From Candidatus Aenigmatarchaeota archaeon (GTDB lineage Archaea; Aenigmatarchaeota; Aenigmatarchaeia; GW2011-AR5), in contig JACPRW010000001.1 in assembly GCA_016193585.1 (NCBI GenBank), positions 59,171-123,170 of the forward strand: a stretch of 64,000 nt of DNA, read 5' to 3'. This document shows, one piece after another, positions 2,356 through 54,830 of the stretch (the first letter of the stretch is position 1; the number at the start of each line of letters is the position of its first letter). The position numbers and the translations under genes were made by a program. The notes beneath the pieces were generated by a model that was given only the letters and a program-made list of their open reading frames with translations, had not been told where the DNA came from and ran no database searches.

Positions 2356-3363
2356 ATGCCGCCAGCATGCGCTTTTCAACTTTACGCTGATAATAGTTTC
2401 ATGGTTGCTGATGAAGTGCTGAGGAACCAGATCAGCAACAGCCTTCGTGAGACCAATTTCCGCTTCGGCAGCCGCTACAGGGGCAAGGTGCGCGATAATT
2501 ACACCGTCGGCGGCGAGCGCGTCATCGTTGCCACCGACAGGATTTCAGCTTTTGACGTTGTCCTCACGACGCTGCCGTTCAAAGGGCAGGTACTCAACCA
2601 GCTTGCCGCGTTCTGGTTCGACAAGACACGGCACTTGTTTCCCAACCACGTCATCGACGTCATCGACCCCAACGTCACCGTCGCGAAGGAATGCGTCCCT
2701 ATTGCTGTCGAAATGGTCGTGCGCGGCTATCTCACCGGCGTGACGCCAACGTCTGCATGGTACCACTACCAGAAGGGCGTCCGCAACTTCTGCGGCAACC
2801 TGCTGCCCGACGGCATGCGCAAAGACCAGCGATTTGATGAGCCAATTCTCACGCCGTCAACGAAAGCGCATCTCGGGCATGATGTTTCCCTGGCAAAGGA
2901 AGAGCTGCTGCGCACGGGCGTCGTGGACAGGGACACATTCGACATCATGGAGGAAGCGTCCTACAGGCTTTTTGATTTCGGTTCGCGTTTTGCGGAAAAA
3001 AACGGCCTTGTCCTTGTCGACACGAAATACGAATTCGGCGTGCACGATGGCGAAGTCGTGCTCATCGACGAAATCCACACGCCCGATTCCTCCCGTTACT
3101 GGTTCAGCAGCAGCTACGAGGAGAATTTCGAGAAGGGCATCGACCAGAAGTCGTTCGACAAGGAATACCTGCGGAAGTGGCTCAGCACGCAGGGCTTCGA
3201 TGGACGCGGCCCTGTGCCTCAGATTCCCGATGAGGTAAAAGTAGAGACGGTGAAGCGGTATGTCGAGGCATTTGCAGCGATTACCGGCGAGGAATTTAAG
3301 CCCGCACCAGGCAATGTATTAGAACGAATACAGCACGTGCTCGCGGAAAAGGGGTATCTATGA
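2356..3363 (+). CDS. purC: Phosphoribosylaminoimidazole-succinocarboxamide synthase (long form)
   Basis: GKVRDNYTVGGERVIVATDRISAFDVVL... matches the SAICAR synthetase family. The start is uncertain: GTG 2353, ATG 2356, or the internal Met at about 2401. Confidence 0.85.
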   Translation: MPPACAFQLYADNSFMVADEVLRNQISNSLRETNFRFGSRYRGKVRDNYTVGGERVIVATDRISAFDVVLTTLPFKGQVLNQLAAFWFDKTRHLFPNHVIDVIDPNVTVAKECVPIAVEMVVRGYLTGVTPTSAWYHYQKGVRNFCGNLLPDGMRKDQRFDEPILTPSTKAHLGHDVSLAKEELLRTGVVDRDTFDIMEEASYRLFDFGSRFAEKNGLVLVDTKYEFGVHDGEVVLIDEIHTPDSSRYWFSSSYEENFEKGIDQKSFDKEYLRKWLSTQGFDGRGPVPQIPDEVKVETVKRYVEAFAAITGEEFKPAPGNVLERIQHVLAEKGYL

Positions 3364-42262: not shown

Positions 42263-43714
42263 CTAAATTGCCCTCTTCCGCCACCGGGGCCCATAGGGCG
42301 TGTCCTCGACGTGTACGCCGCGGAGCTGCAGCTCCTTCCGCAGCGCATCAGCTTTCTTGTAGTCTTTCTTCATGCGGAAGGATTCCCGCTCCCTGATGAG
42401 TCGTGCCTCTTCGGCGTCGAGCGGCTCGTCAGGCTGCATGATGTCGAGGATGCCGTCGACCATCATAAGGAAGCCAAGGACGTTGCGGAGCGACGCGGCA
42501 TCGGCGCGGCGCTCGTCTATCTCCCTGTTTACCACGGTAAACATCCGGTACAGGGCGGCGAGCGCCTCAGGAACGTTCAGGTCGTCGTTCATGTGGTCCT
42601 CGAAGAGTATCTTCGCATCATAGAGCGCCAGCTCTATCGTTTCGTTCAGCTTGCGCACGGTAGACTGCGCAGCCGTGTCCTCGAGCTTCCTGACGAACGC
42701 GTTGAAATTGTCGACGGTACGCTGGGCAGCCTCGAGCTCGCTGAACGTGAAGTTGAGCTGGCTGCGGTAGTGCGTCGCGAGCAGCAGGTAGCGCAAAGCA
42801 ACAGGGGAATGGCCTTTCGCAAGAATGTCCCGCAGCGTGAAAAAATTGCCCAGGCTCTTCGACATCTTCTTGCCGTCGACGATGAGATGGTCGCAGTGCA
42901 CCCAGCATTTCGCGAACTGCGCGCCGGTCGCGCCTTCGCTTTGCGCTATTTCGTTCTCGTGATGAGGAAAGATGAGGTCGACGCCGCCGCCATGAATGTC
43001 GACAGCACCGAGGTGCTTGAGCGACATCGCGCTGCATTCGATATGCCAGCCGGGCCTGCCCTTGATCTGTTCGCCGCCGATGATAACATTCCAGAAAACG
43101 CCGCCGTCTTCCGGAGCGTACGCTTTCCACAGGGCGAAATCCTGCATCTGGTCTTTTGTGTATTCGTCGTGGCGTATCCGCGCGCCTGCTTTCAGCTCCT
43201 GCAGCTTCAGCTTTGAAAGCTTGCCGTAGCCGCCGAAACGGGATATGTCGAAATAGATGGACCCGTCGTCGCCCTTGTACGCACAGCCGTTCTTCAGCAG
43301 GCTGTTGATGAGGCCGACCATTTCCCCGATGTGTTCTGTCGCGCGGGGGTACACCGAAGCCGGCTTGATGCGCAGCGCGCTGATGTCCTCGAAGAAAGCC
43401 TTCTCATACCGCATCGTAAAGTCCTTGAGCGATATCCCCTGCTTCTGGGAATTCGTGATGGTCTTGTCGTCGACATCCGTAACGTTCATGGCCATCTTGA
43501 CGGCAAAGCCGAGGTATTCGAGATAGCGGCGAAGGAGGTCGGCAAAGGTGTACGCGCGCAAGTTGCCGATATGGACATAGTCGTAGACGGTCGGCCCGCA
43601 GAAATAGAAGGTGACGATTTTTCCGCTGGCTGCGAACGCATCTTTGCCCCTCGTCAGGGTGTTGAAAAGCCTGAATGACGTTGGCTTGAGCGCCTCATGT
43701 GATGAAGGCTGCAT
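42263..43714 (-). CDS. cysS: Cysteine--tRNA ligase
   Basis: HIGN-type (HIGNLRAYTFADLL) and KMSKS (KMSKSLGN) class-I signatures, 483 aa. Confidence 0.9.
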   Translation of the reverse strand: MQPSSHEALKPTSFRLFNTLTRGKDAFAASGKIVTFYFCGPTVYDYVHIGNLRAYTFADLLRRYLEYLGFAVKMAMNVTDVDDKTITNSQKQGISLKDFTMRYEKAFFEDISALRIKPASVYPRATEHIGEMVGLINSLLKNGCAYKGDDGSIYFDISRFGGYGKLSKLKLQELKAGARIRHDEYTKDQMQDFALWKAYAPEDGGVFWNVIIGGEQIKGRPGWHIECSAMSLKHLGAVDIHGGGVDLIFPHHENEIAQSEGATGAQFAKCWVHCDHLIVDGKKMSKSLGNFFTLRDILAKGHSPVALRYLLLATHYRSQLNFTFSELEAAQRTVDNFNAFVRKLEDTAAQSTVRKLNETIELALYDAKILFEDHMNDDLNVPEALAALYRMFTVVNREIDERRADAASLRNVLGFLMMVDGILDIMQPDEPLDAEEARLIRERESFRMKKDYKKADALRKELQLRGVHVEDTPYGPRWRKRAI

Positions 43715-50070: not shown

Positions 50071-50436
50071 CTATTTTACAAACTCCACATTCTTCATGCC
50101 TGCAAAAGCATCGTCACCGGTAAGGAATTTTAAGTTATTTCCCAATGCGAACGCATACCCTATGCAGTCTGCATACGAGAGGCTTTTCTTCTTGTTTTTG
50201 AGGCGAAATGCTGCTGCGGTAAGCAGAATTTCATCAGAAACGTCGACCTCTGCATCCCTGAATCTCTGGAAAGCTCCTTTTGCAGATGCTCCGTCCAACT
50301 CGGAGAGAATTATATAAACGAGCTCCACGAGATTAAATTTTGTAGTGGCGATATCCTCCCCGATAAATTTGAGATAGTTCGGGTTGTTTTTCGTGATTTC
50401 GATAAGCGCATACGTATCAAAGAAGTAGTTTACCAT
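50071..50436 (-). CDS. vapC: PIN-domain toxin VapC
   Basis: MVNYFFDTYALIEI... and conserved acidic positions (D..E..D). Confidence 0.7.
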   Translation of the reverse strand: MVNYFFDTYALIEITKNNPNYLKFIGEDIATTKFNLVELVYIILSELDGASAKGAFQRFRDAEVDVSDEILLTAAAFRLKNKKKSLSYADCIGYAFALGNNLKFLTGDDAFAGMKNVEFVK

Positions 50437-50690: not shown

Positions 50691-50785
50691 AGCCACCGAA
50701 GGGAATTGAACCCTTAACCTGCAGTTCAATCGGAAGGTTTCTCCTCTTACAAAACTGCTGCTCTGCCAGGTTGAGCTACGGTGGC
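50691..50785 (-). tRNA. tRNA-Thr(UGU) with 21-nt intron in the anticodon loop
   Basis: Hand-folded as GCCACCG-TA-GCTC-AACCTGGCA-GAGC-A-GCAGT-TTTGTAA-[agaggagaaaccttccgattg]-ACTGC-AGGTT-AAGGG-TTCAATT-CCCTT-CGGTGGC-T. Every stem pairs and the anticodon is TGT. Confidence 0.8.
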
Positions 50786-50828: not shown

Positions 50829-51173
50829 CTATTCTAGACCAAGACTAACAATTATGGCTTCGTCAACTTCTCGCATCTTTCTATACGACAATTTTCCATA
50901 TTTTTTTATTATTCTTGATTTGTCTATTGTCCTTATCTGGTTAAGCAGTATTGTAGACTTTTCCTTAAGCGGCGAATCTATAGTCTCGGTTTCAACATTT
51001 ATTGGAAACTGTTTGGAATATGTTTTCGTCGTTATAGGCGCTATGATGGTAGTTGGACTGTATTCGTTTCCTATGTCATTCTGAATAATTAATGCAGGTC
51101 TTGTTTTTCCTTGCTCAGAACCAGTTACAGGATCTAAATTGACAAGAACTATATCTCCACGCTTAATTTGCAT
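50829..51173 (-). CDS. mazF: MazF/PemK family endoribonuclease toxin
   Basis: MQIKRGDIVLVNLDPVTGSEQGKTRPALIIQND is the PemK/MazF N-terminal signature. Confidence 0.75.
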   Translation of the reverse strand: MQIKRGDIVLVNLDPVTGSEQGKTRPALIIQNDIGNEYSPTTIIAPITTKTYSKQFPINVETETIDSPLKEKSTILLNQIRTIDKSRIIKKYGKLSYRKMREVDEAIIVSLGLE

Positions 51174-53730: not shown

Positions 53731-54441
53731 TTAAAGGTTGCGCCTTGAGGCAAGGTTTAAATATGGTACTGCCGCCGAACCAGCGCCGTTGCCGGCATGT
53801 GCAGGGCAATGCAAGCTTTCGTAGGCGCACGTGACGCTGCTTCCCCGGTCATGGGACAGCTTTTTTGCCGCGTACATAGCGGTGTCAGCCCGTCCAAGGA
53901 GTTCATGAGGGGTTGCCGGCTGTTTTCTGCGCGGGTTGTACGTTGCAGTGCCCGCTGCCAGCGTGATGCGGTGGGCACCGTCGAACGGGTAGCTGTCGAT
54001 GGAAGTTCCCAACCGGTTTGCCGCTGCTATGGCGCCGCGCCTGCCGGTTTCAGGCATGATGACGACAAATTCGTCGCCGCCATAGCGGATGACACTGTCA
54101 GAGTTCCGCATCCCGGTGACAAAGATAGCCGCGGCAGTGCGCAACAGCTCATCCCCAGCCTGATGGCCATAGGTGTCGTTGAACGGCTTGAGTCCGTTGA
54201 TGTCGAGCATGACGACAGACAATGACCGCTGGTAACGGGAGGCCCGTGCTGTTTCATCAAAGAGTATGCCATCCAGTTCCTCGCGACTGTACACGCCGGT
54301 AAGCGTGTCGTAGCGGGGCATTCGTACCTTGGTCCACCACCTGAGATTGACGAGCAGCCGCTCTGCCACCACCTGTCTGAGGAACGCGGCTACCGCTGGG
54401 TCATGCTCTGCCAACCCAATGATAGATTGTTGTATATCCAT
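53731..54441 (-). CDS. GGDEF-domain diguanylate cyclase (no obvious sensor domain)
   Basis: ...LDINGLKPFNDTYGHQAGDELL...RYGGDEFVVIM...ADTAMYAAKK are canonical GGDEF motifs. Confidence 0.75.
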   Translation of the reverse strand: MDIQQSIIGLAEHDPAVAAFLRQVVAERLLVNLRWWTKVRMPRYDTLTGVYSREELDGILFDETARASRYQRSLSVVMLDINGLKPFNDTYGHQAGDELLRTAAAIFVTGMRNSDSVIRYGGDEFVVIMPETGRRGAIAAANRLGTSIDSYPFDGAHRITLAAGTATYNPRRKQPATPHELLGRADTAMYAAKKLSHDRGSSVTCAYESLHCPAHAGNGAGSAAVPYLNLASRRNL

Positions 54442-54553
54442 GACAACCGCCTATACCATAACACTGTAGTATAAAAAAGTTCCGGTATGTGGAACTGTAG
54501 TGCTCTTTCGTTTTCCCCAAGCTTTTAGTACGCGCACGACAAAACCTTAGGAA

Positions 54554-54830
54554 GGGGTCATGGTATAACCAGGTAGTACGGCAGGCTCCAGACGGCTCCT
54601 TTTCTTCGAAAGAAAAGTAGCCGGCAGTCAAAAGAACGAACTGGAGCTTTGAGCTGCGTAGGTAGCAATGATAAGATTCCGCAGGAGGGAATCAGGAAGA
54701 ACTTGATCTTCAAAGAGCAGAGCTCTTTGAGAGCTCAAAGAAGCGAAGCTTCTTTGCAGCAACTGAAGGGAATCTGGGTTCCCTGCGGTTAAGAAACCTG
54801 CTAGTCGGGGTTCAAATCCTCGTGGCCCCA
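54554..54830 (+). tRNA. tRNA-Trp(CCA) with an approximately 204-nt intron (54592-54795) carrying C/D-box-like motifs
   Basis: Hand-folded: acceptor GGGGTCA/TGGCCCC, D-stem GTAT/GTAC, anticodon stem GCAGG ...(intron)... CCTGC, loop CTCCAG|A, T-arm CGGGG-TTCAAAT-CCTCG, discriminator A. The intron contains ATGATAA (C-box-like), CTGA (D box) and TGGAGC complementary to the anticodon region. Confidence 0.65.

Follow-up and report, generated by a model that had tools for sequence, protein, structure and literature searches.

A tRNA-Trp(CCA) gene of an Aenigmatarchaeota archaeon carries a 204-nt intron that probably guides ribose methylation of its own tRNA through a single kink-turn

We analyzed a 64,000-nt stretch of Candidatus Aenigmatarchaeota contig JACPRW010000001.1 (assembly GCA_016193585.1; hereafter the window, with positions counted from its first letter). 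On its forward strand lies a tRNA-Trp(CCA) gene interrupted in the anticodon loop by a long intron. An initial annotation, made from the letters, had described a tRNA-Trp(CCA) with a 204-nt intron at position 37/38, and ARAGORN run with introns allowed returned the same gene with identical coordinates (54554-54830). Default ARAGORN, and Rfam at the gathering threshold, both missed this split gene because long introns lie outside their models; the sole tRNA that they found in the window was at 50691-50785. The spliced tRNA-Trp is 73 nt long and scored 122.1 in ARAGORN without the intron option. Since A residues are repeated at the junctions, the exact cut is ambiguous: every register gives a 204-nt intron and a 7-nt loop, either CUCCAGA or CUCCAAA. 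Homology with 14 relatives places the predicted cuts after G37 (54591/54592) and before A38 (54795/54796). The predicted fold of the pre-tRNA had a z-score of -5.5, and that of the intron alone -4.1. We found no second copy of the intron in the 64-kb window or in any locus that we fetched, which speaks against a repeated or mobile element.

The intron contains a module that combines an antisense element with a single kink-turn (K-turn); the rest is lineage-specific and includes a 5' hairpin and, in its 3' half, a 106-nt block with several hairpins. Five strings had been singled out in the initial annotation, and we located TGGAGC at 54642-54647, ATGATAA at 54668-54674, TTTGAGA at 54726-54732, CTGA at 54763-54766 and the exon string GCTCCA at 54585-54590. 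The reading of TGGAGC as antisense to the anticodon loop was borne out: within the longer antisense element, G54644, the fifth base upstream of box D, pairs with C34. ATGATAA, proposed as box C, indeed belongs to a K-turn module. Its partner, though, is not the CTGA that had been proposed as box D; the true partner is UUGA (54649-54652), directly after the antisense element. These boxes are able to form a K-turn, with intact GA dinucleotides and U1-A6 in place of C1-G6. At the sequence level, G100-C113 closes the stem, the bulge reads AAU, GA stands opposite GA and U opposite U, and an A-U pair is present. G54670 and A54671 would presumably make tandem sheared pairs with A54652 and G54651, if the K-turn rules for box C/D RNAs apply here. 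We rejected a pairing of ATGATAA with the CTGA at 54763, since GAUUCC and GGGAAUC, the flanking stretches able to pair, are each on the 3' side of their box, a topology incompatible with a K-turn. TTTGAGA, formerly read as box C', falls within a lineage-specific hairpin region that is missing in the relatives and is not supported as a box. We also rejected a second C/D RNA in the 106-nt block, in which UUGAUCU and CUGA have no stem to join them. Coordinates of all features are collected in Table 1.

Table 1. Features of the tRNA-Trp(CCA) gene, its intron and the upstream flank (positions in the window; a slash marks a predicted cut and parentheses within a motif mark a bulge; BHB, bulge-helix-bulge)
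Feature	Position	Strand	Basis or remark
Possible archaeal TATA-like element, TTTTAGTA	54523..54530	+	24-31 nt upstream of the tRNA 5' end; read from the sequence
5' exon, tRNA-Trp positions 1-37	54554..54591	+	ARAGORN with introns; close match to other DPANN tRNA-Trp exons
Anticodon CCA	54588-54590	+	C34 is 54588
Intron, 204 nt, position 37/38	54592..54795	+	ARAGORN with introns; homology with relatives
5' hairpin, 13 bp, CGGCUCCUUUUCUU-CGA-AAGAAAAGUAGCCG	54593..54623	+	Starts at intron nucleotide 2; minimum-free-energy and centroid folds
Antisense (guide) element, CUGGAGCU	54641..54648	+	7 Watson-Crick pairs and 1 G-U with 5' exon bases G30-G37
Box D variant, UUGA	54649..54652	+	U1 pairs with A6 of box C; C1-G6 in other lineages
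K-turn C-stem hairpin, 5 bp, GCUGC-GUAG-GUAGC	54653..54666	+	In every fold predicted
Bulge AAU and rest of box C, AAUGAUAA (A-AUGAUAA)	54667..54674	+	Descriptor and pair counts
Internal BHB, 5' strand, UU CCGC (AG/G) AGGGAAUC	54677-54693	+	
Putative nested intron, 106 nt	54685..54790	+	Own BHB scan; hypothetical
CTGA, unsupported as a box	54763..54766	+	About 90 nt from box C, within a stable predicted hairpin; no adjoining antisense element; region absent from relatives
Internal BHB, 3' strand, GGUUCCCU GCGG (UU/A) AG	54777-54793	+	
UAAG and AA, degenerate 3' half of the outer splice motif	54790..54795	+	Partner of C32-C35, then intron bases of the 3' bulge
3' exon, tRNA-Trp positions 38-73	54796..54830	+	CCA end not encoded

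We expressed the module as a descriptor (UGGAG, two nucleotides, box D, a hairpin of at least 4 bp, then NNU-GA). It matched the 64-kb window once, inside the tRNA-Trp intron, compared with 0.09 matches expected per 64 kb on both strands. Relatives were fetched with a pattern of the 3' exon; two-thirds of the genome-contig matches were an actinobacterial tRNA that shares the 3' half, and the archaeal matches were tRNA-Trp genes of Hadesarchaea, Micrarchaeota, Altiarchaeota, an Aenigmatarchaeota metagenome-assembled genome (MAG; locus L066), a "Nanobdellati" MAG (L058) and unassigned archaea. A metagenome scan gave 7 tRNA-Trp loci, and a scan of viral contigs gave none. All fetched tRNA-Trp genes carry an intron after CUCCAG, with lengths of 16-278 nt.

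The module recurs in 11 relatives, from Aenigmarchaeota, Micrarchaeota and Altiarchaeota. Ten of these (L131, L066, L058, L065, L067, L073, L091, L103, L105 and L097) were tabulated together with the window, with pairs counted by script over the 11 introns; L068 was read by eye, bringing the set to 12. In the carriers, box D reads CUGA, CCGA, AUGA or UUGA and directly follows UGGAG plus two bases; 3' of it come a hairpin, a three-base bulge that ends in U (NAU in the tabulated introns), and GA with the rest of box C. The C-stem is paired in 11/11 tabulated introns while its sequence varies; its first base pair is G-C in four, G-U in two, C-G in two and U-A in three. Base 1 of box D and base 6 of box C (D1:C6) pair as C-G in six introns and as U-A in the four Aenigmarchaeota-like ones (the window, L131, L066 and L058), which is a compensatory double change. 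In all 12 module introns, C34 faces the fifth base upstream of box D, as the rule for methylation guided by box C/D RNAs demands; the same C34 register (UGGAGCA/CUGA) is seen in the euryarchaeal alignment in supplementary file 4 of PMC2584109. The rarity of the descriptor, the covariation of the stem and the compensatory D1:C6 change together indicate that the module is a real K-turn and not a chance arrangement.

Other features of the fetched genes vary. L066 (about 2760-2790, reverse strand), L058, L027 and L123 have a further intron, roughly 20-21 nt long and with a motif resembling a bulge-helix-bulge (BHB), just 3' of the D stem. Its carriers are Aenigmatarchaeota, Nanobdellati and some Hadesarchaea, and the 37/38 intron is present in them as well. 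Short tRNA-Trp introns that do not contain the guide module also occur, measuring 16-20 nt in two Micrarchaeota (L101 and L122) and 42 nt in L012; the anticodon loop of L012 is CCCCAGA, with C at position 33.

Overall, we consider it likely that the locus is a tRNA-Trp(CCA) gene whose lineage-variant intron guides ribose methylation of its own tRNA. From the module we infer the following protein binding, methylation and order of events. L7Ae would bind the K-turn, and Nop5 and fibrillarin would then assemble on the L7Ae-bound RNA. The 8-bp duplex between 54641-48 and G30-G37 would present C34, so that fibrillarin could methylate its 2'-OH, whether in cis while the intron is still part of the precursor or in trans once it has been excised and, probably, circularized; circularized tRNA-Trp introns are known elsewhere (PMC9014305). 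The precursor would refold such that C32-C35 pair with a GAAG-like segment before the 3' splice site, and the endonuclease would remove the intron. As each RNA has a single K-turn, it is conceivable, though speculative, that a Nop5 dimer bridges two introns. Fibrillarin, Nop5 (COG1498) and L7Ae belong to a 38-gene archaeal single-copy completeness set from a study that included DPANN genomes (PMC9258230).

Self-guiding tRNA-Trp introns are a known kind of element, and the one-K-turn architecture is the variant part here. In Haloferax volcanii, the tRNA-Trp intron has been shown experimentally to guide Cm34 and Um39 (PMC4090602, PMC7994747). The euryarchaeal order is terminal stem, box C, guide for position 39, D', loop, C', the guide UGGAGCN for C34, box D and terminal stem (PMC2584109); we found that order kept in Hadesarchaea (L011 and others) and in one Micrarchaeota gene (L099). 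With the H. volcanii intron and Pyrococcus sR50, the window intron shares the tRNA-Trp host and position 37/38, a UGGAGCN that abuts box D on its upstream side and sets C34 against the fifth base, C and D boxes that form a K-turn, and two mutually exclusive partners for the anticodon loop, namely the guide and the helix of the splice motif. Whereas the euryarchaeal guide has two K-turn motifs and a terminal stem formed by the intron ends, the window has a single K-turn with the C34 guide upstream of it and box C just downstream of box D across a hairpin. It also differs in its UUGA and AUGAUAA boxes, in having neither C'/D' nor a position-39 guide, and in being about three times the usual length; archaeal tRNA introns are quoted as 11-129 nt long with a median of 65 nt (PMC4090602).

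The kinship with the archaeal pre-tRNA-Trp intron guide that the initial annotation had suggested stands for C34 and falls for U39: position 39 is C in this tRNA, and the only complement to C39-C43, GCAGG (54681-85), is not followed by a box at the right distance. The order in the window is C34 guide, D, hairpin, C, and we did not find in it the canonical C, guide, D', C', guide, D within a terminal stem. No UGAUGA-like box lies 10-14 nt upstream of box D, and no NUGA lies at guide distance downstream of box C. By hand reading of four relatives (L066, L105, L097 and L067), the stretch that follows box C has 6-7 nt of complementarity to the 3' junction, which covary with the final bases of the intron; a consistent D' was not found in these four.

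The window order also reads as a circular permutation of a canonical RNA. Nanoarchaeum equitans, another member of DPANN, has a permuted C/D small RNA (sRNA), sRNA24, which becomes canonical only after circularization, as well as a C/D-like tRNA-Met intron candidate (PMC3491384). The likeness lies in the DPANN lineage, in a C/D-like RNA inside a tRNA intron and in the permuted order of guide 34, D, stem and C. However, sRNA24 keeps four boxes, and the host tRNA of the N. equitans intron is Met rather than Trp. In the window intron, C'/D' boxes were not found near the intron ends; a circular permutation that keeps C'/D' was therefore rejected, and circularizing the intron would not rebuild a two-motif RNA. 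Half-mer box C/D RNAs, and eukaryotic small nucleolar RNAs with degenerate C'/D' boxes, have one functional K-turn and one guide, as the window intron would. To our knowledge, archaeal half-mers are laboratory constructs and not natural RNAs.

If the self-guiding reading is true, the guide element extends to Aenigmarchaeota, Micrarchaeota and Altiarchaeota in a rearranged form with the C34 guide only. Among introns that act on their own host RNA, the tRNA-Trp guide is the textbook example, known from descriptions in Euryarchaeota, where it has two motifs in a fixed architecture; we found no description in the open-access literature of a tRNA-Trp intron with a single hairpin-closed K-turn, or of a spread over DPANN and Altiarchaeota. 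Such an intron would bear on the minimum archaeal box C/D particle and on the rearrangement of guide RNAs, possibly via circular intermediates. Also, because the usual tRNA finders overlook the gene, tRNA-Trp may wrongly seem to be absent from genomes of these lineages.

The initial annotation had also named the absence of a BHB at the predicted splice sites as grounds for refuting it. The outer sites do not form a canonical BHB: C32-C35 make 2 of 4 pairs with UAAG, and helix h' comes only from a local hairpin. Because DPANN splicing endonucleases carry a loop linked to a broad, relaxed substrate range (PMC5829648), this poor motif does not refute splicing. The hairpin at 54593-54623 likely stands in for helix h' of the 5' splice-site motif. 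Hairpins of different sequence that likewise begin at intron base 2, and would likewise take the place of h', are present in L131, L068 and L091. In these start hairpins of the long introns, that of the window included, the 5' arm is U/C-rich and the 3' arm A/G-rich. In 14/14 relatives the outer sites do form the motif at 37/38, and the outer central helix (H) has at least 3 of 4 pairs, with GGAG, GAAG or GGUG just before the last two intron bases, so that the window is the only exception in the set. As a control, the 21-nt intron of a tRNA-Thr(UGU) gene in the window showed a near-canonical hBHBh' motif.

Several observations weigh against a working methylation guide. Box C (AUGAUAA) and box D (UUGA) are both off the consensus RUGAUGA and CUGA, the antisense duplex is short at 8 bp, and a second K-turn (C'/D') was not found in the intron, while archaeal guide RNAs normally have two K-turn motifs (PMC2584109). 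We found nothing in the open-access literature on natural archaeal guides with a single K-turn. Rfam gave nothing at the gathering threshold for the locus, the best family overall, the C/D family sn2991, reaching 21.7 bits (E = 0.2) where its gathering score is 60, and a motif scan of the 64-kb window found no fibrillarin, Nop5 or L7Ae motifs. The outer BHB is non-canonical, as described above. The lineage-specific parts of the intron have no comparative support, as searches by synteny, neighboring proteins, metagenomes and viral contigs retrieved no close relative of the 204-nt intron. Finally, the H. volcanii tRNA-Trp intron is dispensable (Joardar 2008, cited in PMC4090602), and function is therefore not to be assumed from the presence of an intron.

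The degenerate boxes, the single K-turn with its short duplex, the missing position-39 guide and the dispensable H. volcanii intron would also suit a different account, in which an ancestral guide has left its K-turn and antisense element behind, these no longer direct methylation, and the intron is a long structured spacer for the endonuclease to remove, with L7Ae perhaps binding only as a folding aid. The module-free introns of L101, L122 and L012 point the same way, in that the module is dispensable in some lineages. We nevertheless judge such a relic unlikely: the invariant register of UGGAG, two nucleotides and box D over at least three phyla, together with the compensatory change from C-G to U-A, speaks for continued selection on precisely those features that a guide requires, and UGGAG is not needed for the splice motif, which is served by a separate GGAG or GAAG near the 3' end.

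A second alternative is that the long insert merely disrupts a dead tRNA gene, or that it marks a chimeric join. The length of 204 nt, beyond the 11-129 nt quoted for archaeal tRNA introns, and the poor outer BHB would be in keeping with this. An identical sequence with the full gene is, however, present in a Logan contig from another sequencing run (L001), and a contig that begins inside the intron and is reported in 10 samples (L002) matches exactly over 54 nt of intron; the agreement of independently assembled contigs makes an assembly artifact unlikely. The exons are intact and give a high-scoring cloverleaf, the conserved guide module is intact, and introns of 111-278 nt built on the same plan occur in other DPANN and Altiarchaeota genes. 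We therefore regard a pseudogene or artifact as highly improbable.

Compatible with a self-guiding intron is the further proposal that the 106-nt block is itself an intron, bounded by its own BHB, nested within a 98-nt guide intron and excised first. The best BHB of the whole precursor is internal, with H formed by CCGC and GCGG (4/4), h' of 8 bp and both bulges exactly 3 nt. Its excision would turn the outer partner of H from UAAG (2/4) into GAAG (3/4), with the intron then ending in CCGCAG-AAGAA/A. GAAG-AA/A is found at that place in L131, L065, L067, L097, L011 and L099, and L131 shows the same outer architecture without the block. The outer H of the window is also the only one, set beside those of 14 relatives, to fall short of 3/4 pairs. 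Among shuffles of the intron, 0.5% gave an equally good inner BHB that left the outer H with at least 3/4 pairs. Gains of extra BHB introns are known in these lineages from the D-stem introns of L066, L058, L027 and L123, and intron transposition has been reported in Thermoproteales (PMC4090602).

Other results speak against nesting. An internal BHB of such quality, taken by itself, arises in about 5% of shuffles, and shuffling is a lenient null for naturally hairpin-rich RNA. The outer helix h has only 2 bp, and adopting the BHB conformer costs about 9 kcal/mol relative to the best cloverleaf-constrained fold (-100.6 versus -109.5 kcal/mol). Another AGGGAAUC copy, at 54767-74, is a local competitor for the same pairing partner. 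No retrieved relative carries the block, and a scan of the other long introns found no nested BHB. On balance, the nested intron is possible, and we lean somewhat against it. Slightly more tentative is the fuller, twintron-like description, in which a 106-nt BHB intron would sit inside a single-K-turn guide intron (permuted or half-mer) and its removal would create the outer splice motif.

Thermoproteales tRNA genes contain multiple and transposed BHB introns and use relaxed BHB variants (HBh' and hBH) as splice signals (PMC4090602). The candidate shares with them the gain of extra BHB-bounded insertions within tRNA genes; Thermoproteales introns interrupt exon sequence, whereas the candidate second intron of the window sits inside the first. 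We found no description in the open-access literature of tRNA introns above the 11-129 nt range or of a BHB intron inside an intron. Were the twintron-like description true, inner splicing would have to come first, C34 methylation or refolding second and outer splicing last, and BHB introns would be shown to be able to colonize other introns. The nested reading, if correct, would make the locus a natural test case of how splicing is ordered and how BHB introns spread.

The 3' half of the intron also contains an 8-nt direct repeat, AGGGAATC, at 54686-54693 and 54767-54774. Each copy is able to pair with GGTTCCCT (54777-54784), so that this half has two alternative folds; the length of the repeat is not significant alone. 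We rejected its reading as a target-site duplication, as, by a rough estimate, chance alone would yield about 0.3 such 8-nt repeats per 204 nt.

The surroundings of the gene are archaeal, with PCNA and geranylgeranyl reductase genes nearby. A neighboring HIT protein is 100% identical to a Candidatus Aenigmarchaeota MAG protein, and its next relatives are likewise labeled. In a synteny comparison, homologs of the HIT protein stood in other gene contexts, with no tRNA alongside, and the only homolog found for a 97-aa neighbor (HYY37_00640) was itself. The gene that adjoins the tRNA-Trp gene in this DPANN archaeon encodes a GGDEF (diguanylate cyclase) domain (53731-54441, reverse strand). Its best non-self matches are 31-45% identical and the named ones are bacterial, which suggests that it was acquired from bacteria.

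Elsewhere in the window, a strict four-box C/D sRNA descriptor gave two matches on the reverse strand (2507-2567 and 42411-42466), compared with 0.1 expected per shuffle. Both overlap long open reading frames and may be chance matches or embedded sRNA genes; as evidence for C/D machinery they are unconvincing. Between 16001 and 20000, the G+C content is 0.38-0.40 against about 0.52 for the whole window, and this segment may be an island of foreign DNA. The tRNA at 50691-50785 (reverse strand) was labeled by default ARAGORN as a 95-nt tRNA-Tyr(GTA). With introns allowed, it became the tRNA-Thr(UGU) used above as a control, with its intron at 37/38 and a BHB made of h with 5 bp, H with 3/4 pairs and h' with 4 bp. 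It is flanked by a PemK/MazF-type toxin gene (50829-51173) and a PIN-domain gene (50071-50436), both on the reverse strand.

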